A stretch of 64,000 nucleotides of DNA from Candidatus Magasanikbacteria bacterium RIFCSPHIGHO2_02_FULL_48_18 (GTDB lineage Bacteria > Patescibacteriota > Patescibacteriia > Magasanikbacterales > UBA922), in contig MFQC01000003.1 in assembly GCA_001784285.1 (NCBI GenBank), forward strand, positions 18,151 to 82,150, written 5' to 3'. Positions 24,183 through 37,066 of the stretch are shown one piece after another. The notes under the pieces are model-generated. The model was not told where the DNA came from, made no database searches, and saw only the letters and a program-made list of their open reading frames with translations. Within the stretch, counting starts at the first letter, position 1; every line of letters begins with the position of its first letter. The translations under genes and the position numbers were made by a program.

Positions 24183-25304
24183 ATGATTTCTTCACACATG
24201 AAACAATCGGGAAAAATTGATATCGTTCTTTTTGTCTCTGTTCTCATGATTCTTGTGTTTGGACTTATTATGCTGAGTTCGGCGAGCGCTCCTGTTGGGT
24301 TGCAGAGATTTCAGGATCAATATTTTTTTATTAAACGGCAATTGCTGTTTGGCGTTCTCCCCGGCATGATATTTTTTCTTTTTTTGAGCAAATTCTCCTA
24401 TACGACGCTTATAAAATATGCGCTCCCCATTTTTTTGGGGTCGTTGATTTTGCTTCTTGCAGTCTTTATTCCCGGCATTGGCTCTTCGCTCAATACCGGG
24501 TCTCATAGCTGGCTCGTTATTGGATCATATTCGTTCCAGCCCGCCGAATTCGCCAAACTTGCCATGATTATATTTTTTGCGTCGTGGCTCTCAAAAAAGG
24601 CATCGACAATGAAGGATTGGAAACATGGATTTTTGCCCGCTGTCTTTCTCGGCATGATTCCCATCGGGCTTGTTATTCTTCAGCCGGATGTCGGCACTGT
24701 TTCTATTTTGTTCGCTATTTTCTTTGGGCTTCTTTTTTTTGCAAATACAAAAATGACGCACATGACATTTCTCGCCGGCCTTGCGCTTGCCGGGCTGGCA
24801 GTAATGATTATCGCGGCTCCCTATCGAACCGAGCGCCTTATGACATTTTTACGCCCTGAACTCGACCCAAAAGGCATTGGGTATCAAATTAATCAGGCGT
24901 TTGTAGCGGTGGGATCGGGCGGATTGTTTGGATTGGGGTATAATAATTCACGGCAAAAATTTCAGTATCTTCCGGAGGTTCACGCGGATAGCATTTTTGC
25001 GATTATCGCCGAAGAAATGGGTTTTGTCATTTCCATACTCTATCTGGTTCTTTTGGTATATGTTGCCCACCGGGGATTAACGCTTGCAAAATCGGTCCCC
25101 GACGCAAACGCTGGTTTTTTGGTGGGAGGAATCATTGTGTGGATTTTGGCGCAATCTTTTTTGAATATCGGTTCGATTGTCGGCGTTTTGCCTTTAACCG
25201 GCGTGCCGCTTCCATTTGTGAGCCATGGAGGAACCGCGCTTGCGATTACCCTTGCGGCCATGGGGATTGTCATGAACGTGAGCAGGCATGCGGTGAGATT
25301 GTAA
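24183..25304 (+). CDS. ftsW: SEDS-family peptidoglycan glycosyltransferase FtsW/RodA
   Basis: 10-TM SEDS signature regions (FQPAEFAKLAMII, GSGGLFGLGYNNSRQKFQYLPE, PFVSHGGT). Located immediately upstream of murG. Confidence 0.85.
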   Translation: MISSHMKQSGKIDIVLFVSVLMILVFGLIMLSSASAPVGLQRFQDQYFFIKRQLLFGVLPGMIFFLFLSKFSYTTLIKYALPIFLGSLILLLAVFIPGIGSSLNTGSHSWLVIGSYSFQPAEFAKLAMIIFFASWLSKKASTMKDWKHGFLPAVFLGMIPIGLVILQPDVGTVSILFAIFFGLLFFANTKMTHMTFLAGLALAGLAVMIIAAPYRTERLMTFLRPELDPKGIGYQINQAFVAVGSGGLFGLGYNNSRQKFQYLPEVHADSIFAIIAEEMGFVISILYLVLLVYVAHRGLTLAKSVPDANAGFLVGGIIVWILAQSFLNIGSIVGVLPLTGVPLPFVSHGGTALAITLAAMGIVMNVSRHAVRL

Positions 25305-25325
25305 TTTCCAAGATGCAATAATAGT

Positions 25326-26399
25326 ATGAAAATTTTTTTTTCCGGCGGGGGAACATTGGGCCCCGTCACACCGCTTCTTGCCATGCGCGAAATGCTGCAA
25401 CATGTGCACCCTGATATAGAATATCGATGGGTTGGAACAAAACGAGGGCCGGAAGCGGCTATTGTCAAAGAGCAGGGGATACCATTTATAACACTGTCAT
25501 CCGGCAAGTTTCGGCGTTATATTTCCATTTGGAATGTTGTTGATATTGTCCGCGTTATTATTGGTTTTTTTCAATCGCTTCGGTTGCTGTGGCGAGAGAA
25601 GCCGGATGTATGCATTACCGCCGGTGCTTTTATTTCTGTTCCATTGCATTGCGCGGCCTGGGTGCTGGGTATCCCGTGTTGGGTGCACCAACAGGATGTT
25701 CGCATTGGTCTTGCCAACAAACTTATAGCGCCATTTGCGACAAAAATAACAACTGCGCTCAAAAGGCAAGTGATTTCATTCAACAAAAAAAAGACCGAGT
25801 GGCTCGGCAACCCAGTGCGGCCGTCATTGTTTCAAGCCACAAAAGAAGACGGGAGAAAACGGCTTCAACTGAAAGACGACATGCCTGTTATTTTTGCGAC
25901 CGGCGGCGGCACTGGATCACAGCGTGTAAACCAGCTAATTGTGGAAGCGGTGGGTCAGTTGACCGGAAAAGCGCAGGTGATTCATCTTACCGGAAAAGAA
26001 CGGTCGCAAGAGTTGGCCGAGCGCGCGCAAAAGCATGCCCGGGATTATCATGTCTACCAATTTTTCACCAATGAAATGAAAGACGCCTATGCCGCGGCTG
26101 ATATTATTATTTCTCGGGGCGGATTTGGCACGATTACCGAAATTGCCGCGTTTGGCAAGCCGGCTATTCTTATTCCAAAACCCGGGCATCAAGACGAAAA
26201 TGTTCAATTTCTGCAAGATCAGGGCGCGGTTTTATGTCTGAATGAACGAACCAGTGACGGCAACCAACTCGCGAAAGTGATCCGCCAGCTACTGGAAGAC
26301 GCACCCCGGCAAAAGACCATGGTGGACAAACTTTCTGTCCTTATGCCGTGCGCCAAAGAAGAAGATATATTCCGTATTCTCCACGCATTGACCGGATAA
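25326..26399 (+). CDS. murG: UDP-N-acetylglucosamine--N-acetylmuramyl-(pentapeptide) pyrophosphoryl-undecaprenol N-acetylglucosamine transferase
   Basis: N-terminal G-loop FSGGGTLGPVTP and C-terminal GGFGTITE...GKPAILIP are MurG GT28 signatures. Confidence 0.9.
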   Translation: MKIFFSGGGTLGPVTPLLAMREMLQHVHPDIEYRWVGTKRGPEAAIVKEQGIPFITLSSGKFRRYISIWNVVDIVRVIIGFFQSLRLLWREKPDVCITAGAFISVPLHCAAWVLGIPCWVHQQDVRIGLANKLIAPFATKITTALKRQVISFNKKKTEWLGNPVRPSLFQATKEDGRKRLQLKDDMPVIFATGGGTGSQRVNQLIVEAVGQLTGKAQVIHLTGKERSQELAERAQKHARDYHVYQFFTNEMKDAYAAADIIISRGGFGTITEIAAFGKPAILIPKPGHQDENVQFLQDQGAVLCLNERTSDGNQLAKVIRQLLEDAPRQKTMVDKLSVLMPCAKEEDIFRILHALTG

Positions 26400-26454
26400 G
26401 TATGGATTTACTCGGCGTAATTATGAAGATTGGCCGACACAGTTAAAAAAATTG

Positions 26455-26527
26455 TGACCCCGGTGGGGATTGAACCCACGACCATCAGCTTAAAAGGCTG
26501 CTGCTCTACCAGCTGAGCTACAGGGTC
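26455..26527 (-). tRNA. tRNA-Lys (anticodon UUU)
   Basis: rc reads GACCCTGTAGCTCAGCTGGTAGAGCAGCAGCCTTTTAAGCTGATGGTCGTGGGTTCAATCCCCACCGGGGTCA. 7-bp acceptor stem, canonical D-arm and T-loop, anticodon loop CTTTTAA. No encoded CCA. Confidence 0.85.
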
Positions 26528-26589
26528 ATTTGATTGTTTCAAAACTCCTGGAATATGGTATACTACCCATCTCAAAACGTCAATATTCT

Positions 26590-29280
26590 ATGGATTTTTA
26601 CGCATCCAGTATATCACAGCTCTTTCGGGATTTCCAGACGTCCAAGAATGGTTTGACAACCGAAGAAGCGACAAAGCGCCGTACAATGCACGGAGCCAAT
26701 GTTCTTCCCCCCTCACACGAAGCGACCACACAAGTTCGCATTTTTTTTGATCAATTCCGCAGTCCATTGATTATTGTTTTGGTCCTTGCCGGTGTGGTGA
26801 GCGCTCTTTTGGGGGAGATGGTGGATATGGTGGTGATTGGGATTACTGTTTGTCTCAATACCCTTGTTGGTTTTTTCCAAGAAAATAAGGCCAATCAGGC
26901 GCTACAAAAACTTCGAACCATGGTTGAATATCACGCCGTGGTCCTTCGAGATGGGCATAAACACATTCTTCCGAGCGACGATATCGTACCGGGCGATATT
27001 CTCTTTTTAGATGCCGGCGACAAAATTCAGGCCGATGGGCGAATTCTTGAATGCGTTCATTTCCAAGTCAATGAAGCATCGCTTACTGGAGAGTCTGTTG
27101 CCGTAAAAAAAATGCAGACCACACTTAAAAAAGACACGCCCATTGCAGACCAAAAAAATATGGTATTTCGCGGGACGGTTGTGGTGAATGGCAATGCGGC
27201 GGCGCTCATCACCGCTACCGGCCCCAAAACGCAAATTGGCGGGATTGCTTCGTTGGTTCAAGAAACAGCTGAAGAAAAAACACCGCTTCAGACCCAGCTC
27301 CATCGGTTGAGCCAAAAAATCGGTATCGTGGTTCTTTTCTTTTCTTGCATCATTTTTTTTCTCAATATTTTTTTCTCGAATGGTCTGCATTCTTTTTTTG
27401 AGGCGTTTCAAATTTCGGTCGCCATAGCCGTCGCCGCTATTCCGGAAGGATTGGCTATTACGCTCACGGTTATTTTAGCGATCGGAATGCGGCATATTTT
27501 AAAGCGCCGTTCTTTGGTAAGAAAATTGGTTGCCGCCGAAACCCTCGGTTCGGTCAATGTGATTTGCACCGATAAAACCGGAACGATTACGGAAGGAATC
27601 ATGCGTGTGACGAAGATCATTACTATGCACGACGATTTGGATTTTGATGAAGTGAAGACACTCCATGTCAGCAAAGCGGATCGGCATGAAGACGCGCTTT
27701 TTGCGTTAAAAATTGGCGTTATGACGAATGACGCCATGCTCGAGACAGGTGATAACGATGGCAATGTGCCTCAGTTTGTGGGCGATACGACGGACGTTGC
27801 TTTTTTAGAAGCCGGTCGAATTGTGGGCATAGAAAAAGAACAGATGGAGTCCGTATTTCCTCGCTCCGGCCATATTCCTTTTACCAGTGAACAAAAATAT
27901 ATTGCCACCCGCCATCGCGCTGATGGCGCGTTGTTTATCTATGTCAAAGGAGCGCCCGAAGTCATACTCGGCCGGTGTGTATCTATTCAATCAAAAGGAA
28001 AAAAACAGGTTATGACGGATAAAAAACAGCAATGGATAAAGGACCAGATAGTCTCTCTCACCGATCAGGGTCTTCGCGTGATTGCCATCGCATATAAAGA
28101 AGAAAAAACAGCCGGAAAGGAACTTGCCAACAGTTCTGTATCTGAGTTGGTTTTTGTTGGATTAGCGGGTTTATCCGACCCAATCCGTTTGGGCGTTCGA
28201 GAAACTATTGAAAAAGCAAAAAAAGCCGGCATTCGGACCATTATGATTACAGGCGACCACGTCCATACAGCCCAATCAATCGCCGCTTCTATTGGCCTTC
28301 CGCATGGGGCGGAATTTGTTTGTGATGGCCTCCGCTTGGGGCAGATGAGCGATGACGAACTCACCGTTGTGGTTGAAAAAGTTTCTGTGTTTGCCAGAGT
28401 GGACCCAGTTCATAAAATTCGCATCGTCCAAACCCTTCAAAAAAATGGGAACGTGGTGGCTATGACAGGCGATGGTGTCAATGACGCGCCCGCGCTCAAA
28501 GCCGCGGATATTGGTGTCGCGCTTGGCTCGGGAACCGATGTGGCAAAAGAAATTGCGGATATTGTGCTTCTTGACGATTCTTATGAAACCATTGTCGCTT
28601 CCGTCGAAGAAGGAAGAGGCATTTATCAGAATATCAAAAAAGTACTTTTGTACCTTATGTCCGGGAGCCTTGCCGAGGTGGTCTTGATTGGCGGGAGCAT
28701 TCTCGCCGGCCTTCCGCTTCCGGTTTTGCCGGTTCAAATTTTGTGGGTGAATATAATTGAAGACGCGTTTCCTGCCATGGCTCTTGCGTTTGATAAGAGT
28801 GAAAAAGAAAACATGAAGGATCGTCCGAGAAAAAGAGGGGAATCCATCCTGGACCGAGAAATGAAAATAATGATCGTCGTGATTACACTTTTTTCAAATT
28901 TTGTTTTGCTGGGCCTTTTCTTTTATTTTGTCAGCACGATTGACGATATTGCGCGCATCCGTACGCTTATGTTTGTCGGTTTGGCTATTGCGCCGCTGTT
29001 GTATATCTATGCCGTTCGAAGTCGGCGTCGCATGTTGTGGCAAATGAATCCCTTTGATAATATTTTTCTCAATTTTTCCATTCTGTTCGGCTGGTTTTTG
29101 CTGATTGGCGCGGTGTATATCCCTCTGTTTCAAACATTATTGAGGACCGTGCCTCTTTCATTTTCCGATTGGAAAATTTTGATCCTTTTTGGTTTTGTCA
29201 ATCTATTTCTCATTGAAATCATGAAGTATTTATTTTTGGTGTCCAAAAAACACACAGTTTCATCACTTCAAGCAACATAA
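26590..29280 (+). CDS. P2-type cation-transporting ATPase (Ca2+-ATPase-like)
   Basis: DKTGTIT phosphorylation motif, TGDHVHTA and MTGDGVNDAPALKAADIGVA hinge motifs, 10 TM. In-frame ATG 26590 chosen because track ORF 26530 overlaps the tRNA. Confidence 0.9.
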   Translation: MDFYASSISQLFRDFQTSKNGLTTEEATKRRTMHGANVLPPSHEATTQVRIFFDQFRSPLIIVLVLAGVVSALLGEMVDMVVIGITVCLNTLVGFFQENKANQALQKLRTMVEYHAVVLRDGHKHILPSDDIVPGDILFLDAGDKIQADGRILECVHFQVNEASLTGESVAVKKMQTTLKKDTPIADQKNMVFRGTVVVNGNAAALITATGPKTQIGGIASLVQETAEEKTPLQTQLHRLSQKIGIVVLFFSCIIFFLNIFFSNGLHSFFEAFQISVAIAVAAIPEGLAITLTVILAIGMRHILKRRSLVRKLVAAETLGSVNVICTDKTGTITEGIMRVTKIITMHDDLDFDEVKTLHVSKADRHEDALFALKIGVMTNDAMLETGDNDGNVPQFVGDTTDVAFLEAGRIVGIEKEQMESVFPRSGHIPFTSEQKYIATRHRADGALFIYVKGAPEVILGRCVSIQSKGKKQVMTDKKQQWIKDQIVSLTDQGLRVIAIAYKEEKTAGKELANSSVSELVFVGLAGLSDPIRLGVRETIEKAKKAGIRTIMITGDHVHTAQSIAASIGLPHGAEFVCDGLRLGQMSDDELTVVVEKVSVFARVDPVHKIRIVQTLQKNGNVVAMTGDGVNDAPALKAADIGVALGSGTDVAKEIADIVLLDDSYETIVASVEEGRGIYQNIKKVLLYLMSGSLAEVVLIGGSILAGLPLPVLPVQILWVNIIEDAFPAMALAFDKSEKENMKDRPRKRGESILDREMKIMIVVITLFSNFVLLGLFFYFVSTIDDIARIRTLMFVGLAIAPLLYIYAVRSRRRMLWQMNPFDNIFLNFSILFGWFLLIGAVYIPLFQTLLRTVPLSFSDWKILILFGFVNLFLIEIMKYLFLVSKKHTVSSLQAT

Positions 29281-29304
29281 TTTTTTTATTTTTGTTCATC
29301 GTCT

Positions 29305-29889
29305 ATGATACTGCAAAAATCATATCTCAAAAAAATGCGAACCCACCTTCATGCATATCAGGCCATACGGCACGATGTCATCCATGAGTCGGATACCGCT
29401 CTCCATATGGCAAAGCGGGCGATTTTTTCAATGCAAAGGGGGGATATGGCCGTTGCGGGAGAAGCAACTCATGCAATTGAAAAAATTTTGAAGGGCATTC
29501 AAAAAAAATATGAGAAGCAGACCCAAGCAATGGATGAAGGCTCGTACAAAGCGGCCGTTGAAGAATTTGTGGAAGCGTCGCTTTTTTTGCATTTTCTCAA
29601 AAAACAGCCAATGGGTGAAATTTCCTCAATCCGTGTTGACCCAGATGTGTATCTGGCCGGCCTCTGTGACGTTCCAGGGGAATTATATCGTTTTGCCATT
29701 CGGGCCGCGAGCGAGAAGGACAGAGCCATGGTACGACGGTGCCAGGAGGCGGCGAGCGCCATTATTGGAGAACTGATCGAGTTCAATTTGACCAGTTATT
29801 TGCGGACAAAGTTTGACCAGGCCAAACAAGCCGCGCATAAGCTCGACTTGGTGGTGTATGAGTTGGCACTTCGTGAAAAAGAGATATAA
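29305..29889 (+). CDS. Translin-family protein
   Basis: All-helical 194-aa protein. YLAGLCDVPGELYRFAIRAA and C-terminal KLDLVVYELALR resemble the conserved translin motifs (LxGLxDLTGELxR and VVYDLSIRG). Confidence 0.5.
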   Translation: MILQKSYLKKMRTHLHAYQAIRHDVIHESDTALHMAKRAIFSMQRGDMAVAGEATHAIEKILKGIQKKYEKQTQAMDEGSYKAAVEEFVEASLFLHFLKKQPMGEISSIRVDPDVYLAGLCDVPGELYRFAIRAASEKDRAMVRRCQEAASAIIGELIEFNLTSYLRTKFDQAKQAAHKLDLVVYELALREKEI

Positions 29890-29904
29890 CGCGATGTATG
29901 GCAT

Positions 29905-31293
29905 ATGAAGGCATTGCTTAAAAAAATTGTTCCCAAATCCATATTGAATGTTGGTCATTTGTTTTACGCGTGGTTTGGGGCAATGCGTTATCGGCATCCT
30001 TCCGAAAAATTATTTGTCATTGGCGTTACGGGAACCAGCGGAAAATCAACCACGGTATTTTTGTTGCGCCAATTTTTGGAAGCGGCCGGGTACGTGGTTG
30101 GGTCGTTGTCCACGATTGATTTTTCTATCGCAGGAAAAAACCGTTTAAACGACCAAAAAATGACCATGCTTGGCAAAATGCAGATTCAAAAATATTTGCG
30201 CGAGATGGTCGAGAGCCGGTGCCAGATTGCGATTATAGAAACCACATCCGAAGGACGCGTCCAGCATCGCCACCGGTGGATTGCGTATGACGCGATGGTT
30301 CTTACCAATCTTTATCCGGAACATATTGAGTCGCATGGCAGTTTTAAAAAATACAAACAAGCAAAATTGGATATTTTTTACAATGCCGCCAGGTACCGAG
30401 CGGGCCGGAAGAACGCGGAAACGATTGGATTCCCCAATTTGAAAAAAAAGAATTCAACTTCGCTCCAAAAGATGTGTTTTGTCAATGGGGACATCGCGGA
30501 AGCGGAGGAATTTTTGTCCGCAGGTTCGTTTGACGCGCGGTATGTGTTTGGAACGCGCAAAACGTCCGACTTGTCCATAGGTTATTTTCAGCTTTCAAAC
30601 ATACAAACAGAAAAAAATGGCATATCTTTCCTCATACAAAACAAACGCTTTGAAACGCCGCTTTTCGGCCGCCACAATGCCATGAATATGACTGCCGCGG
30701 TTGCCGTTGCCGAGACAGTGGGCGTTTCGGCGTCTCTCCTTCAAAAAAAAGCAAAAATTCTTGAACAAATTCCCGGACGGATAGAATTTATTGCAGAATC
30801 CCGGCCTTTTGGATTTGATGTTATTGTCGACTACGCGTTTGAGCCAAAGGCCATGGAAGCGCTGTATGGAGTCGTTCTACAACGTGAGCCAAAACGCATT
30901 ATTCACGTGTTTGGTTCAACCGGCGGAGGAAGGGACAAGGCCAGGCGGCAGATTTTGGGCGCGTATATTGGCGAGCGGGCGAACCTGTGCATTATTACCG
31001 ATGAAGACCCATATGATGAAAATCCGCTTGACATTATCAATACCGTCTTTGAGGCGGTGCGGCAGACCGGAAAACAGGAAGGAAAGTCTGTCTGGAAAAT
31101 TTTTGATAGACGAGACGCAATCGAGAAAGCAGTCGGCCTGGCCGCTCCTGGTGATTTGGTGTTGATCACCGGAAAGGGGAGCGAACAGGCAATGTGTGTC
31201 GCCCATGGAAAAAAGATACCCTGGGATGATCGCGCCATTGTTCGTCAAGCGCTCGAAAAGCGAAAAAAACTATGTCACGAGCATCAAAAATAA
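29905..31293 (+). CDS. murE: Mur ligase, MurE-like (UDP-N-acetylmuramoyl-L-alanyl-D-glutamate--diamino acid ligase)
   Basis: P-loop GVTGTSGKSTT, Mur ligase middle and C-terminal domains (DYAFEP, GKGSEQ). MurE versus MurF assignment is not certain from sequence alone. Confidence 0.7.
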   Translation: MKALLKKIVPKSILNVGHLFYAWFGAMRYRHPSEKLFVIGVTGTSGKSTTVFLLRQFLEAAGYVVGSLSTIDFSIAGKNRLNDQKMTMLGKMQIQKYLREMVESRCQIAIIETTSEGRVQHRHRWIAYDAMVLTNLYPEHIESHGSFKKYKQAKLDIFYNAARYRAGRKNAETIGFPNLKKKNSTSLQKMCFVNGDIAEAEEFLSAGSFDARYVFGTRKTSDLSIGYFQLSNIQTEKNGISFLIQNKRFETPLFGRHNAMNMTAAVAVAETVGVSASLLQKKAKILEQIPGRIEFIAESRPFGFDVIVDYAFEPKAMEALYGVVLQREPKRIIHVFGSTGGGRDKARRQILGAYIGERANLCIITDEDPYDENPLDIINTVFEAVRQTGKQEGKSVWKIFDRRDAIEKAVGLAAPGDLVLITGKGSEQAMCVAHGKKIPWDDRAIVRQALEKRKKLCHEHQK

Positions 31294-31910
31294 AATTACA
31301 GCCGGGAGAACGCATTGTCCGTATGGCTTCACGCTATGGGCTTATCTTTTTTTGGTCTTGGTTTTTGGTTGGGCTCTTGTTTGTAGCGCCTTTTTTCTTT
31401 TTATTTTGGCTCTTTCAAAAAGGCTGGTGGGGGCAGGCGATATTTTTTTCTTCGGTAACTCTTGGATTGTTGTTGCTTATCCGCACGTGGGTTATGTATC
31501 GGCGGAATATTTGTTTTATTACGACGCATCGTATTGTGGATATCTCGTATCAAAGTTTTTTTGAACAAACCATTACGGACGTGCCCTATGACGACATTGA
31601 AACTGTCTATGGAAAGGTTACCGGTTTTTGGGGAAGTCTTTTCCGCTATGGTTCTGTCACCATCGACACCACCACTCCTGGAATTTCTGTCGTTATCGCA
31701 CAGATGAAACATCCAGCGGATATTCAGCAAGAAATTCAGACCCAACGAAAACACTATTGCGCATCTGCCGCCCGTGATTTTGGACAGAATCTCACCAAAG
31801 GAATTATTGAAAAATTGTATGAGCTGGAATTGGAGGACCTGCGCCATATTCAAAAGAGCGTTGCCAAACGCATTGCATCCCTTTCCCAACATAATGATGA
31901 TCGAACGTAG
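31272..31910 (+). CDS. Membrane-anchored bacterial PH-like (YdbT/DUF304-type) domain protein
   Basis: Two N-terminal TM helices followed by a beta-rich domain resembling bPH_2 proteins. Start overlaps the murE end. Confidence 0.5.
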   Translation: MSRASKIKLQPGERIVRMASRYGLIFFWSWFLVGLLFVAPFFFLFWLFQKGWWGQAIFFSSVTLGLLLLIRTWVMYRRNICFITTHRIVDISYQSFFEQTITDVPYDDIETVYGKVTGFWGSLFRYGSVTIDTTTPGISVVIAQMKHPADIQQEIQTQRKHYCASAARDFGQNLTKGIIEKLYELELEDLRHIQKSVAKRIASLSQHNDDRT

Positions 31911-31952
31911 TGCGCCCTTTTCTTCGCTGTTTGTGTTTGGTATACTTGCACT

Positions 31953-32375
31953 ATGAAGCAAGAATTTCAGTCTTTTCGCCGTTTTTTCCAGTCACGAGCG
32001 TTTTTTCTGGTCCTTTTCAGTATTGCCATTCTTTTTGTTTTCGGTTTTGGCCGGGCGTATTTTCAAAATTATAAAATTCGCCAGGAAATCAAACGTCTTG
32101 AAGAGGATGTTCAAAATTTGGAACAAAAAAAGATAGAGTCGCTCAGTCTCTTGGCGTACGTCACCAGTCAAAAATATGTCGAGGATACGGCGCGCGTTGA
32201 GCTTGGCATGAAAAAACCGGGGGAAGAGGTTGTCATTATTTCCGATTCCTCAAAAGAGAGCCGGGGAGAAACGCGTGACGGGGCAGAGAGCGTTGAGGCG
32301 TCGCATATTCCAACATACAAAAAGTGGTGGTATTACTTTATAGATCATTCCTTGCCACAGGAATCGGATACATAA
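31953..32375 (+). CDS. ftsB: FtsB/FtsL/DivIC-family septum formation initiator
   Basis: N-terminal TM, coiled coil and conserved distal motif YVEDTARVELGMKKPGEEVV. Lies upstream of ftsI, the ftsL position in dcw clusters. Confidence 0.6.
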   Translation: MKQEFQSFRRFFQSRAFFLVLFSIAILFVFGFGRAYFQNYKIRQEIKRLEEDVQNLEQKKIESLSLLAYVTSQKYVEDTARVELGMKKPGEEVVIISDSSKESRGETRDGAESVEASHIPTYKKWWYYFIDHSLPQESDT

Positions 32376-32392
32376 TTCTTAATTTTTTATAT

Positions 32393-32719
32393 ATGGGAAA
32401 ATTCAAGCGCGGCCTTATTATGGGCGGGCTCTTGGGCGCCGGCCTCATGTGGCTCAACACCACAAAACACGGCAAAGAGACAAAAGAAAAGATATTGTCC
32501 TATGCCGGAGATGTGTACGACGATGTCAAACAAAAAATTGCCGCATCGAACGCCTGGGAAAAAATGACAAAGAACGCGTACGTCACCATGGTAAAAGACG
32601 CCGTGAAGAAGTACGCGAATACATATCAATTGAGTGAACACGTGCAGTCTCTCATCACGACGCTTGTGTCGTCGCAATGGAACACGCTCAAAAAGGAAAT
32701 GAAAAAAAAGGGAAAATAA
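32393..32719 (+). CDS. YtxH-domain membrane-anchored protein
   Basis: MGKFKRGLIMGGLLGAGLMWL followed by a charged helical region, the YtxH/DUF948-like pattern. In-frame ATG 32393. Confidence 0.55.
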   Translation: MGKFKRGLIMGGLLGAGLMWLNTTKHGKETKEKILSYAGDVYDDVKQKIAASNAWEKMTKNAYVTMVKDAVKKYANTYQLSEHVQSLITTLVSSQWNTLKKEMKKKGK

Positions 32720-32730
32720 CAATTTTTTTT

Positions 32731-34515
32731 GTGAACACTCCTTCGTCATATCGCACCACACGATCCAAAACGTCAGGTGCTCGCTTTTGGGATCGTAATC
32801 GTCATGGCGTCGTTATGTTGGTGATTTATGGCATGGCGCTCCTTATCGCTGTTCGCCTGTTTGATCTTATGGTTGTGCGGCATGAGGTCTATGTGGCTCT
32901 TGCGGAAGGGACACAGTCCGTCGCCGCAAAATTATTTCCCAATCGCGGAAATATTTTTTTCCAAGACTCTCGAACAGGGGGCCCGTATGCGGTCGCAATG
33001 AATAAAGACTATTTTGTCGTTTTTGCGGACACCCGCGCCATTCTCACAGATGACACAGCCGAAAACGTGGCGGAACAGCTGTCTTCTATTTTTTTGTATG
33101 ATGACGAAAAAAAGTTTTCTCTTTTTTTAGCCCTTAATAAACGAACCGATCCGTATGAGCCCGTTGAACAAAAAGTTGACGAGGCAACCAAGGAAGCTGT
33201 TGAGGCGCTTTCGTTGCCCGGGATCGGTTTTATACGAAAATCGTATCGGTTTTATCCCGAAGGGTCGCTCGGAAGTCACGTCATTGGATTTGTCGGAAAA
33301 GATGCCGAAGGAAATGAAGCCGGCCGGTATGGTGTTGAGGGGTATTGGGACAAGGAGCTTGCGGGGAGCGGGGGTTTTTTAGAGGCCGCTAAAAGCGCAA
33401 CCGGGAGTTTGATTCTCCGGAATGCGTTTCAGCCGGCAGAAGACGGAGCACATCTTTTTTTGACCATTGATCGAACGCTTCAACACCGTGCGTGCGACCG
33501 CCTTCGTCGGGCCATGGAAGAAACACGTTCGGCGAGTGCGTCCCTCATTATTGCTCACCCTCACACCGGGGCGCTTCTTGCAGTGTGTTCTCTGCCCGAT
33601 TTTGACCCCAACGAATACAATAAAGCGGACTCTGTGGATGTGTATAACAATAGCGCGATTTTTACGCCGTATGAACCGGGTTCTATTTTTAAACCGATTG
33701 CCATGGCGGCGGCGCTCGATCAAGATTTTATGACGCCGGACACGACGTTTGTGGATAGCGGGTCAAGAGCGGAATTATGCACGAAACCTATTATGAACGC
33801 GGGACAGCGAAGTTACGGCCTTCAAACCATGACCGAAGTTCTGGAAAATTCTGTCAATACGGGAATGGTATTTGTGGTGGAGAAGATCGGGAAAAAAGTC
33901 TTTCGCGAGTATGTGGAACGGTTTGGTTTTGGCGTGAAAGAAGGAATCGATTTGGACAAAGAAAATACCGGAGTGATTCGCACTCTTTGGGAAAATAAAG
34001 GCGATCGGGTTGATTGCTACACTGCGACTGCTTCGTTTGGCCAGGGCATTACAGCGACACCGCTTCAAATGGTGTCGGCATTTGGCGCGATAGCAAACGG
34101 AGGCAAGCTGATGAAGCCCTATGTGGTCGACCGCATTGAATATCCTAATGGAAAAATGAAGAAAACCCAGCCCTTGGAAGTCCGGCAAGTGTTGCAGAGC
34201 CGGTCGGCGGCTCTGTTGACCGGCATGCTTGTGAGCGTGGTCCAAAATGGATATGACGCGCTTGGCATTAGCGCCTATCATCTTGCGGGAAAAACTGGAA
34301 CCGCGCAGATTCCCGGACCCGGAGGGTATATTGATGAAACCATCCATTCGTTTATCGGTTTTGGGCCGGTGGAAGATCCAAAATTTGTGATGATTATAAA
34401 GCTTGAAAAACCGCAAACATATAAATACGCGTCCAATTCCCTCGCGCCTGTGTTTGCCGATATTGCAAAATTTATTTTAGCATATTATGAGGTGCCGCCA
34501 AGCGAGGGTAATTAA
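32731..34515 (+). CDS. ftsI: Class B penicillin-binding protein (peptidoglycan D,D-transpeptidase FtsI/PBP2-like)
   Basis: N-terminal TM anchor, PBP dimerisation domain and transpeptidase motifs SxxK (SIFKP), SxN (SVN) and KTG (GKTGTAQ). The GTG 32731 start is uncertain; ATG 32815 is the alternative. Confidence 0.85.
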   Translation: MNTPSSYRTTRSKTSGARFWDRNRHGVVMLVIYGMALLIAVRLFDLMVVRHEVYVALAEGTQSVAAKLFPNRGNIFFQDSRTGGPYAVAMNKDYFVVFADTRAILTDDTAENVAEQLSSIFLYDDEKKFSLFLALNKRTDPYEPVEQKVDEATKEAVEALSLPGIGFIRKSYRFYPEGSLGSHVIGFVGKDAEGNEAGRYGVEGYWDKELAGSGGFLEAAKSATGSLILRNAFQPAEDGAHLFLTIDRTLQHRACDRLRRAMEETRSASASLIIAHPHTGALLAVCSLPDFDPNEYNKADSVDVYNNSAIFTPYEPGSIFKPIAMAAALDQDFMTPDTTFVDSGSRAELCTKPIMNAGQRSYGLQTMTEVLENSVNTGMVFVVEKIGKKVFREYVERFGFGVKEGIDLDKENTGVIRTLWENKGDRVDCYTATASFGQGITATPLQMVSAFGAIANGGKLMKPYVVDRIEYPNGKMKKTQPLEVRQVLQSRSAALLTGMLVSVVQNGYDALGISAYHLAGKTGTAQIPGPGGYIDETIHSFIGFGPVEDPKFVMIIKLEKPQTYKYASNSLAPVFADIAKFILAYYEVPPSEGN

Positions 34516-34670: not shown

Positions 34671-34692
34671 CGTTGTTGATTATTACAATTAT

Positions 34693-34766
34693 GTCAGGGT
34701 AGCTCAGTTGGTGAGAGCGTAGGATTCATAACCCTAAGGTCGGGAGTTCGATTCTCCCCCCTGACA
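34693..34766 (+). tRNA. tRNA-Met (anticodon CAU; elongator type, could alternatively be tRNA-Ile2 read via lysidine)
   Basis: GTCAGGGTAGCTCAGTTGGTGAGAGCGTAGGATTCATAACCCTAAGGTCGGGAGTTCGATTCTCCCCCCTGACA. Perfect 7-bp acceptor with G1-C72, so not an initiator. Anticodon loop TTCATAA. Confidence 0.8.
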
Positions 34767-34771
34767 CCCAG

Positions 34772-34826: not shown

Positions 34827-35177
34827 TTACGACATGAATTGATTTTCTTGTTGCGGGGCAGTCAATGGTGCAACGGGTACAGTTTTCCCCTTGCCTTTCA
34901 GGGCGTCTTTCAGTCCTTTTCCTGCTTTAAACTTTGGCACTGTCACCGGAGGAATCTGAATTTTTTCAGTTGGATTTTGAGGATTGACTCCAACACGACC
35001 GGCTCTTGTCTTGGCGCTAAATGCGCCAAAGCCGGCAATGGTGACTTCTCCTCCCGCTTGTAATGTTTCAATAACAATTTCGGTGAAAGAGGCAACCATG
35101 TCCTCGGCTTCTTTTTTGGATACGCCGACCTTGTTGGCAATCAGTTCGGCCAATTTTGCTTTGTTTATGGTCTGCAT
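34827..35177 (-). CDS. hup: HU-family DNA-binding protein with lysine-rich C-terminal tail
   Basis: MQTINKAKLAELIANKVGVSKKEAEDMV...GFGAFSAKTRAGRVGVNPQNPTEKIQIP is the canonical HU fold sequence. Carries a C-terminal KAGKGLKDALKGKGK extension. Confidence 0.9.
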   Translation of the reverse strand: MQTINKAKLAELIANKVGVSKKEAEDMVASFTEIVIETLQAGGEVTIAGFGAFSAKTRAGRVGVNPQNPTEKIQIPPVTVPKFKAGKGLKDALKGKGKTVPVAPLTAPQQENQFMS

Positions 35178-35265: not shown

Positions 35266-36792
35266 TTATTTTGCATACTCGATGACACGTGTTTCACGGA
35301 TGACATTTACTTTAATTTCTCCCGGATATTGCAGTTCACTTTCAATGCGTCTTGCAATGTCCTTTGCGAGATTATACGATTCGTAGTCGTCGAGTTCGTT
35401 GGGATTGACAAACACGCGCACTTCTCGTCCCGCTTGAATGGCATACACTTTGTCAACGCCAGGAAAATCTTTTACCGTGTTTTCCAACTCTTCCAAGCGG
35501 GCCACATATTGTTCATAGGTGTCGCGTCTCGCGCCCACGCGGCTTGCAGAAATTGCGTCCGCCGCCATAACCAATTTGGTGAGAAGGAGGGGAGGGTTGG
35601 TGTCATGGTGGGTAAGAGCCACTTGCGCCGTATCTTCGTCAATATTGAATTTTTTAAGAATGGTGTAGCCGATTTCCGTATGCGCCCCCTGTGTTTCGTG
35701 ATCGACCGCTTTGCCAATGTCGTGGAAAAAACCTGCCTTTCGCGCTTTTGCCGGATCTGCGCCGACTTCTTCCGCCATAATGCCGGCCAAGTATCCCACC
35801 TCAAGACAGTGATTCAATACATTTTGACCATAGCTCGTTCGATATTTGAGACGGCCGACAATAGCGCCCAATTTTGGGTCCATGTTGATAATACCCATTT
35901 TGTGCAACGCTTCTTCGCCCGCTTTTTGGATGTCAATCGCGAGTTCTTTTTTTGCTTCCTCAAAATATTCTTCAATTTTGGCAGGCTGGATTCGCCCATC
36001 TTTGATGAGTTTGTCAAGCGTCAGGTAGCACATTCTGCGGCGGATGGGCGAAAAGCTTGAGATGAGAATAATGTCCGGTGTTTCATCAATAATCAATTCA
36101 CAGCCGGTGAGTTTTTCAATCATTTTAATGTTGCGCCCTTCTTTTCCAATAATGCGGCCTTTCATTTCATCGCTCGGCAAACTTACTGCCGTTGATGTGG
36201 TTTCCGATGCATGATTCGCGGCCGTGCGTTGCATGGCCACAATAAGTATATCTTTCGCTTTTTCTTGAAGCGTGTCGTGGTTTGCATTGTCAAACTTCAA
36301 AATACGGTCCATCAAATCTTTTTTGGATTCTTGTTCAATTCGGACAAACAATTCTTCCTTTGCCTGTTCCGGCGTGTATTGTGCAATATCTTGGAGTTTT
36401 TGCTTTGCCTCTTCGTGAGCCGCATCAATCCGTTCTTTGATATTTTGAATTTCGGTTACTTTTTGCTGGAGCTTTGTTTTTCTATCTTCGAATTCCATGA
36501 ATTTTTGGTCAAACATGGACTCCCGTTTTTCAAGACGCGATTGAATATCTCGCATTTCTCTGCGCCGATTGTCATCTTCTTTTTTGGCTTCGTCGATAAT
36601 GGTAATCGCTTTTTCTTTTGCCTTGAGGATAACCTCTTGTTCCTTGTTTTTTGCCTCGATCAGGCGTTTTTCGGCCAATGCTTCCACCGAATTGGCGCGT
36701 GCTTGGGCGACCTGTTTGCGAATACTATACCCGGCAAATATACCAATCAAAAGCCCAACAAAGCCGATCGCGGCAATAATAAATTCCGACAT
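35266..36792 (-). CDS. rny: Ribonuclease Y
   Basis: N-terminal TM anchor, long coiled coil, KH domain (GRIIGKEGRNIK) and HD domain (HDIGK). ATG at 36792; the track ORF starts at TTG 36798. Confidence 0.9.
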   Translation of the reverse strand: MSEFIIAAIGFVGLLIGIFAGYSIRKQVAQARANSVEALAEKRLIEAKNKEQEVILKAKEKAITIIDEAKKEDDNRRREMRDIQSRLEKRESMFDQKFMEFEDRKTKLQQKVTEIQNIKERIDAAHEEAKQKLQDIAQYTPEQAKEELFVRIEQESKKDLMDRILKFDNANHDTLQEKAKDILIVAMQRTAANHASETTSTAVSLPSDEMKGRIIGKEGRNIKMIEKLTGCELIIDETPDIILISSFSPIRRRMCYLTLDKLIKDGRIQPAKIEEYFEEAKKELAIDIQKAGEEALHKMGIINMDPKLGAIVGRLKYRTSYGQNVLNHCLEVGYLAGIMAEEVGADPAKARKAGFFHDIGKAVDHETQGAHTEIGYTILKKFNIDEDTAQVALTHHDTNPPLLLTKLVMAADAISASRVGARRDTYEQYVARLEELENTVKDFPGVDKVYAIQAGREVRVFVNPNELDDYESYNLAKDIARRIESELQYPGEIKVNVIRETRVIEYAK

Positions 36793-37066
36793 ATGCAAAA
36801 AAACTCATTGTCATGAGGAACCGATTATTGCCACAAATCCCTTTTGAGTATGTGGAGGGAGAAATGGTACTTAGTGTTGTCGAAAAAAAAGAGGAATCTC
36901 GTTTTGAGACGCCAAACACGTGTTCGTGTTACGAGCCGCTGTCAGAATCGGAGAGTTGGTATTCTTTTCTGAAGAAATAACTTTTTTTTTGCTCAACATA
37001 GCCATTTTTTGCAACAATAAAATCGGAATCTTGCATGACCAATATTTGTTAAATAAGACATAATGA

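Follow-up and report, generated by a model that had tools for sequence, protein, structure and literature searches.

A TRAX-like protein of the C3PO catalytic type encoded next to murE in a Candidatus Magasanikbacteria genome

The DNA analyzed here (the window) is a 64-kb stretch from a Candidatus Magasanikbacteria bacterium (Patescibacteria/CPR). It contains a real translin-superfamily gene of the TRAX/C3PO catalytic type, an ATG-started ORF that encodes 194 amino acids plus a stop codon (Table 1). Taking the evidence as a whole, we consider it highly probable that the product is the TRAX-like subunit of a C3PO-type nuclease, an old CPR resident that forms homo-oligomers and cuts single-stranded RNA (ssRNA). 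The nuclease chemistry is well supported by homology; the assembly, substrates, and role we infer.

In the public annotation of the identical protein (P0001), the start is called at Met11 (window position 29335), giving 184 amino acids. Because residues 2 to 10 align with the conserved N terminus of homologs (MLxKxYLxKLKK; alignment of 18 homologs), the upstream ATG at 29305 is the better start. No obvious Shine-Dalgarno sequence was seen at either start. The position between a P-type ATPase gene and murE, described in an earlier note made from the sequence alone, was confirmed by Pfam and NCBIfam and by TIGR01085. Only 24 nt separate the end of the ATPase gene from the TRAX-like start codon, and 15 nt separate the TRAX-like stop codon from murE. 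A simple terminator scan found no terminator-like site between the three genes, in a setting where promoter and terminator scan counts were not above shuffled controls. The short gaps and the lack of terminator-like sites suggest that the gene is co-transcribed with the ATPase gene and murE, and co-transcription with murE is probable.

Table 1. Features of the TRAX-like gene and its surroundings (window positions)
Feature	Position	Strand	Basis or remark
tRNA-Lys, between murG and the ATPase gene	26454-26527	-	
P-type ATPase, Ca-type, upstream neighbor	26530..29280	+	Pfam and NCBIfam
TRAX-like CDS (translin superfamily, C3PO-type)	29305..29889	+	ORF, PF01997, AlphaFold2, Foldseek
Lys37 codon (= NeC3PO Lys34)	29413..29415	+	Alignment to 5jr9
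EEFVEA motif, residues 86-91, with Glu87 and Glu90	29560..29577	+	Alignments, PMC5100593
YLAGLCDVPGELYRF motif, residues 116-130, with Asp122, Glu126, and Arg129 (= NeC3PO Arg124)	29650..29694	+	
YLRTKFDQ segment, residues 165-172, start of last helix	29797..29820	+	Alignment, conservation counts
VVYELALR motif, residues 183-190, C-terminal helix	29851..29874	+	Aligns with vYdLSlrG
murE, downstream neighbor	29905..31293	+	TIGR01085, 302 bits (cutoff, 257)
Bacterial PH-domain (bPH) protein	31272-31910		Overlaps the murE end by 22 nt
tRNA-Met	34692-34770	+	ARAGORN (79 nt, anticodon at position 36); bounds differ slightly in Rfam (34693-34766)
HU	34827-35177	-	Adjoins the RNase Y gene
RNase Y	35266-36798	-	TIGR03319, 565 bits

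Family, fold, and catalytic residues

The protein matched the Pfam Translin profile (PF01997) at 59.5 bits, against a cutoff of 25.9 (E = 5.9e-16), and the match spans residues 36 to 190, equivalent to profile positions 17 to 204 of 205. An AlphaFold2 model made from the alignment of a 19-homolog profile is an all-alpha fold of six helices (mean pLDDT, 93.6; pTM, 0.88). The best 50 Foldseek matches to this model in the PDB were all translin, TRAX, or C3PO chains (probability 1.00, TM up to 0.90). Superposition on the archaeal AfC3PO and NeC3PO gave TM values of 0.84 to 0.90 (rmsd, 1.8 to 2.4 Å), and that on human and mouse translin gave a TM of about 0.8. Chance resemblance is disfavored by the Pfam E value and by the existence of hundreds of full-length homologs. 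The earlier note had assigned the protein to the translin family, had described it as all-helical, and had proposed an HMM search and a structure comparison as checks; both checks bear out the assignment, and the six-helix model agrees with the description.

Within the superfamily, sequence comparison identifies the protein as the TRAX/C3PO catalytic type rather than translin proper. A single-protein search of PDB sequences ranked NEQ131 (the Nanoarchaeum equitans C3PO) and AfTRAX first. Searched against the PDB, the 19-homolog profile retrieved AfTRAX (8e-15) and NEQ131 (9e-15) most strongly, followed by human TRAX (2e-9), fly TRAX (4e-9), fly translin (1e-7), and human translin (6e-5), so that translin provided the weakest matches inside the family. 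The earlier translin-family assignment thus holds at the level of the superfamily, but the protein is not translin proper, as TRAX types score far above translin. All NCBIfam matches were to PRK14562 models, the best at 65.1 bits against a cutoff of 228 (equivalog cutoffs range from 228 to 359). By sequence, the protein is related to the archaeal PRK14562 groups and belongs to none of them.

The name "haloacid dehalogenase," carried by NCBIfam models and UniRef relatives, was rejected for this protein as a naming artifact, since the fold and motifs are those of translin/TRAX and not of HAD. The misnaming of archaeal and CPR translin-family proteins as "haloacid dehalogenase (superfamily protein)" is persistent and is seen both in the PRK14562 models and in the UniRef name of one relative (P0123).

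In NeC3PO, two cations required for RNA cleavage are coordinated by Glu82, Glu85, Asp117, and Glu121 (PMC5100593). When the bacterial protein is aligned by HMMER with 5jr9 (chain numbering, native plus 34), these equate residue for residue with its Glu87, Glu90, Asp122, and Glu126, at an identical spacing of 3/32/4. The acidic tetrad is invariant in 354/354 homologs, comprising 119/119 Magasanik-type, 117/117 other-CPR, and 118/118 DPANN-type sequences. Asp122 is matched by Ala in the inactive AfTRAX entry 3zc0 and by Ile in human translin; translin lacks the catalytic residues (PMC5100593). The two motifs that had been quoted as translin hallmarks, YLAGLCDVPGELYRF and VVYELALR, are both present. 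Catalytic Asp122 and Glu126 lie inside the former, and the latter is common to translin and TRAX, being aligned with the vYdLSlrG of translin/TRAX-type domains.

The NeC3PO substrate contacts whose mutation matters are K34, R124, R163, R164, and Y168; Lys34 touches substrate phosphates, and the K34A substitution lowers cleavage (PMC5100593). Three of these five mutagenesis-defined contacts are kept in the bacterial protein (K37, R129, and R167, respectively), and the other two differ (R164 to Thr168 and Y168 to Gln172). Lys is found at the Lys37 position in 118/119 Magasanik-type, 117/117 other-CPR, and 118/118 DPANN-type homologs. Elsewhere in the alignment, NeC3PO D167 and S26 correspond to the same residues (D171 and S29), and F160 corresponds to Y165, a conservative change. 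The changes at residues 168 and 172 may give the bacterial protein a substrate preference other than that of NeC3PO.

Tandem translin-fold domains occur in many eukaryotic proteins of 330 to 690 amino acids (P0129, P0132, P0141, P0142, P0154, and about 55 other representatives); P0129 belongs to the stramenopile Chattonella subsalsa. In these proteins, a translin-like domain at the N terminus, which lacks the acidic residues and has translin as its best PDB match, precedes a TRAX-like domain that carries EExxEA and GLxDxTGE. These proteins look like single-chain translin-TRAX fusions.

Gene order among division and cell-wall genes

In the window, the genes surrounding the TRAX-like gene run in the order FtsW, MurG, tRNA-Lys (minus strand), P-type ATPase, TRAX-like protein, MurE, bPH protein, DivIC, YtxH, and PBP/FtsI. 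This division/cell-wall block (24183-34515) is broken by noncanonical members, namely, the Ca-type P-type ATPase, the TRAX-like gene, the bPH protein, and the YtxH-like protein.

The order (P-type ATPase)-TRAX-like-murE-(bPH)-DivIC is conserved. Among 80 species-level loci, a murE-like gene lies downstream on the same strand in 66 of the 73 with enough sequence; a P-type ATPase gene is directly upstream in 36/65 related loci, and DivIC follows downstream in 48/70. The upstream neighbor varies, being a P-type ATPase, a bestrophin-like protein, or GreA, and ORF clustering over all loci found the inserts between the TRAX-like gene and murE to be heterogeneous. Envelope genes also accompany the gene in other CPR lineages: BacA-YceG/MltG-TRAX-like at two loci (L085 and L086), YceG-TRAX-like with a PAP2 phosphatase nearby (L088), FtsW-NUDIX-MurG-GT4-M50 protease-TRAX-like ... 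MurD-MurE-bPH-DivIC (L087), and P-type ATPase-TRAX-like ... MurD (L089).

A NUDIX hydrolase gene lies directly 3' of the TRAX-like gene at L087 (5582-6001, 6 nt away) and L088 (5655-6080, 82 nt away). The idea of a NUDIX/TRAX-like RNA-decay module was dropped, as NUDIX did not recur between the TRAX-like gene and murE when the ORFs of all loci were clustered.

Four loci (L011, L021, L025, and L072) are without murE downstream and have in its place a common large ORF and a membrane protein. The ATPase upstream of the gene at L021 and L025 shows just 32% identity. Two TRAX-like genes occur on different contigs of a single MAG, assembly JACRPD01 (L011 and L025), and are 57% and 53% identical to the query. 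A paralogous locus or a mixed bin could account for these observations.

Distribution and ancestry

The nearest relatives are 52 to 60% identical and about 190 amino acids long; where an organism is named, it is Candidatus Magasanikbacteria, Parcubacteria, or the Patescibacteria group. Some sources label near relatives "translin" or "predicted translin family RNA/ssDNA-binding protein." Scanning 185,579 species, each represented by a single genome, for the sequence pattern turned up 123 species-representative genomes with a relative, a count that covers the Magasanik-type motif clade only because the scan was built on the closer alignment (A1). For the 80 genomes kept from these 123, nearly all informative titles name Magasanikbacteria or Patescibacteria. 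We note that many TPA assemblies titled "uncultured Gammaproteobacteria bacterium" (L007, L009, L014, L020, and others) and one titled "Candidatus Udaeobacter sp." have a Magasanikbacteria-type locus with the same gene order; these titles are probably wrong or placeholder labels.

When 1.84 billion representatives clustered at 50% identity were searched with a profile, 2026 family members scored E <= 1e-3, and 210 of them reached E <= 1e-30. One set of distant single-domain proteins, with names such as Uhrbacteria, Pacebacteria, Andersenbacteria, and the Patescibacteria group, comprises at least 1250 clusters at 90% identity; a second set carries the names Altiarchaeota, Woesearchaeota, and Nanoarchaeota. 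Related clades are also present in Parcubacteria. The earlier statement that bacterial members are rare thus stands outside CPR and does not hold within it, given the 123 species-representative genomes and the further CPR clades.

The bacterial translin-superfamily genes on record in the sources available are those of Chloroflexi (Gupta et al. 2012, J Mol Evol, via PMC5100593). In the literature searched, we found no report of such genes from bacteria beyond Chloroflexi, and no paper in the searchable literature tied translin to CPR or Patescibacteria. The large CPR TRAX-like clade seems not to have been discussed in print before. The description of bacterial members as functionally uncharacterized agrees with our search, which found no experimental work on any of them in the searchable literature.

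GC content stays close to 0.45 throughout the window, and the GC and GC3 values of the TRAX-like gene (0.470 and 0.497) are inside the range of the neighboring genes. A neighbor-joining tree (163 domains, 191 columns, 200 bootstraps, rooted on translin-like domains) was built from a sample biased to sequences resembling the CPR profile, with Chloroflexi left out. In this tree, the window protein falls in a Magasanikbacteria clade (60% support) that lies within a larger radiation, which includes the named CPR sequences; DPANN archaea and eukaryotic TRAX domains branch outside that radiation, and deep nodes have <50% bootstrap support. The mean identity of the Magasanik clade is 36% to other CPR sequences, 31% to DPANN/Altiarchaeota, 30% to stramenopile TRAX domains, 27% to AfTRAX, 23% to NEQ131, and 23% to translin-like domains. 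Five signature positions separate DPANN from CPR sequences: 86 (Q in DPANN, E in CPR), 41 (Y, F), 168 (K, T/N), 172 (S, Q), and 165 (E, Y). A special CPR-eukaryote link, raised by the very high scores of stramenopile TRAX against the CPR profile, is not claimed, in view of the near-equal identities to stramenopile and DPANN sequences and the support of <50% at deep nodes.

That the gene was recently acquired from an archaeon or a eukaryote and inserted by chance into a housekeeping neighborhood is extremely unlikely. Such an origin would agree with the mainly archaeal and eukaryotic record of the family in the literature, and the nearest nonbacterial relatives are indeed DPANN archaea and stramenopile TRAX domains, at about 30% identity. 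However, composition (flat window GC and GC3 within the range of the neighbors), synteny (the same gene order in most of the 80 species-level genomes, with murE in 66/73), and nesting in the Magasanikbacteria clade within the wider CPR radiation argue against recent transfer, as do the signature residues E86, F41, T/N168, and Q172, which differ from those of DPANN. The horizontal acquisition implied by the earlier note is accordingly not supported as a recent event. The data fit long-standing vertical inheritance in Magasanikbacteria and other CPR lineages. An early exchange with DPANN-like archaea may have occurred, as may an interdomain transfer in the remote past at the base of the CPR clade; the deep nodes have bootstrap support below 50%.

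Predicted nuclease function

The closest known systems are the archaeal AfTRAX (Archaeoglobus fulgidus; 3zc0 and 3zc1) and NeC3PO/NEQ131 (N. equitans; 5jr9, 5jrc, and 5jre). Like these, the bacterial protein is a single TRAX-like protein of ~190 amino acids with no separate translin partner gene found, and it shares their helical-bundle fold and the identical Glu-Glu-Asp-Glu tetrad at the same spacing. The equivalents of NeC3PO Lys34, Arg124, and Arg163 are conserved, whereas Thr168 and Gln172 replace Arg164 and Tyr168. It differs from both archaeal systems in its bacterial (CPR) host and its peptidoglycan gene neighbors. Sequence identity to them is only about 20 to 27%, and the octamer and activity known there are here predictions from sequence.

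The TRAX-like proteins of DPANN and Altiarchaeota (Woesearchaeota, Nanoarchaeota, and Altiarchaeota) have the same length and architecture and the tetrad in 118/118 sequences. They are among the closest nonbacterial relatives, at about 31% mean identity, but differ in the clade-specific residues at 86, 41, 168, 172, and 165 and form separate tree groups. Eukaryotic TRAX shares the catalytic motifs EE(Y/F)xEA and GLxDxTGE, and identity to stramenopile and oomycete TRAX domains is 30 to 35%; animal TRAX differs in having a long insertion. Eukaryotic TRAX forms a 6:2 hetero-octamer with translin and is unstable alone (PMC5100593); in contrast, the bacterial gene has no translin partner gene near it, either in the 64-kb window or in the 89 related loci. 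The Chloroflexi translin-superfamily proteins, as described in the sources available (Gupta et al. 2012, via PMC5100593), are likewise encoded by a single gene in a bacterium and functionally uncharacterized, and belong to a different phylum.

In the mechanism that we propose, Glu87, Glu90, Asp122, and Glu126 would face the inside of a six-helix bundle, bind two divalent cations, and hydrolyze phosphodiester bonds, with the single-stranded substrate held by Lys37, Arg129, Arg167, and Tyr165. Judged by these conserved residues, Mg2+-dependent endonuclease activity on ssRNA is the most likely activity. AfC3PO and NeC3PO are homo-octamers of one TRAX-like protein (PMC5100593), and no second translin-fold ORF was found in the 64-kb window or in any of the 89 related loci; a closed homo-oligomeric shell, probably an octamer, is therefore likely by analogy with the archaeal single-gene systems. 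Short ssRNA would be cut inside the cavity, and ssDNA possibly, more weakly. NeC3PO cuts ssRNA at least tenfold better than ssDNA (PMC5100593), and by the same analogy RNA is the likely natural substrate. The eukaryotic C3PO substrates on record include siRNA passenger strands, tRNA fragments, and miRNAs. Most plausibly, the bacterial counterpart would clear or process short RNA fragments as a housekeeping role, expressed from a gene in the division/cell-wall block that is probably co-transcribed with murE.

An RNase Y gene, adjoined by the HU gene, lies about 5.4 kb downstream of the TRAX-like gene on the opposite strand (Table 1). Thus, the TRAX-like protein is accompanied in this genome by at least one RNA-decay endonuclease of a canonical kind.

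Two other functions were weighed against this RNA-housekeeping nuclease. The protein might be a non-catalytic, translin-like one that binds RNA or ssDNA without cutting, as its membership in the same Pfam family as translin and the fit of its model to human and mouse translin (TM of about 0.8) would allow. We regard this as very improbable: the catalytic acidic tetrad is complete and does not vary across the 354 homologs, the profile scores TRAX types far above translin, and translin itself has Ile at the Asp122 position and is without the catalytic residues (PMC5100593). Alternatively, the function might be tied to cell-envelope synthesis or division, through nuclease action on dcw transcripts or through moonlighting, rather than to general RNA housekeeping. 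The adjacency of murE in 66/73 Magasanikbacteria loci points this way, as do the neighbors in other CPR lineages, which are YceG/MltG and BacA (L085, L086, and L088), division and Mur genes (L087), or a P-type ATPase and MurD (L089). Indeed, the RNA-housekeeping model leaves the steady linkage to cell-wall and division genes unexplained. A fixed place in a slowly rearranging block is, however, no proof of a functional link, and both the varying upstream neighbor (P-type ATPase, bestrophin-like, or GreA) and the heterogeneous genes inserted before murE speak against one. To our knowledge, none of the C3PO functions described so far concerns the cell wall. An envelope-specific function is thus unlikely.

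The finding is neither a gene-transfer anomaly nor a new type of system. C3PO/TRAX nucleases have so far been studied in eukaryotes (RNAi and tRNA and miRNA processing) and in two archaea. The CPR members enlarge the known range of this nuclease type: a TRAX-like protein with intact catalytic residues is both stable and widespread in Magasanikbacteria and several other CPR lineages. A candidate housekeeping RNase is thereby added for organisms whose RNA metabolism is barely known, and the protein, being small, apparently soluble, and encoded by a single gene, is suited to in vitro work. The gene keeps its place amid cell-wall and division genes with a regularity that the present model does not explain; the finding overturns no current view. 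A broader reading, which we hold as doubtful though conceivable, is that the TRAX-like protein found across CPR represents a core C3PO of bacteria, a caged RNase that assembles itself and was either kept or taken early from DPANN-like archaea. If so, it would fill a role in RNA decay or processing that other bacteria cover with different enzymes, and its near-fixed place beside murE and other envelope genes would reflect a real co-regulation of RNA turnover with wall growth and division.
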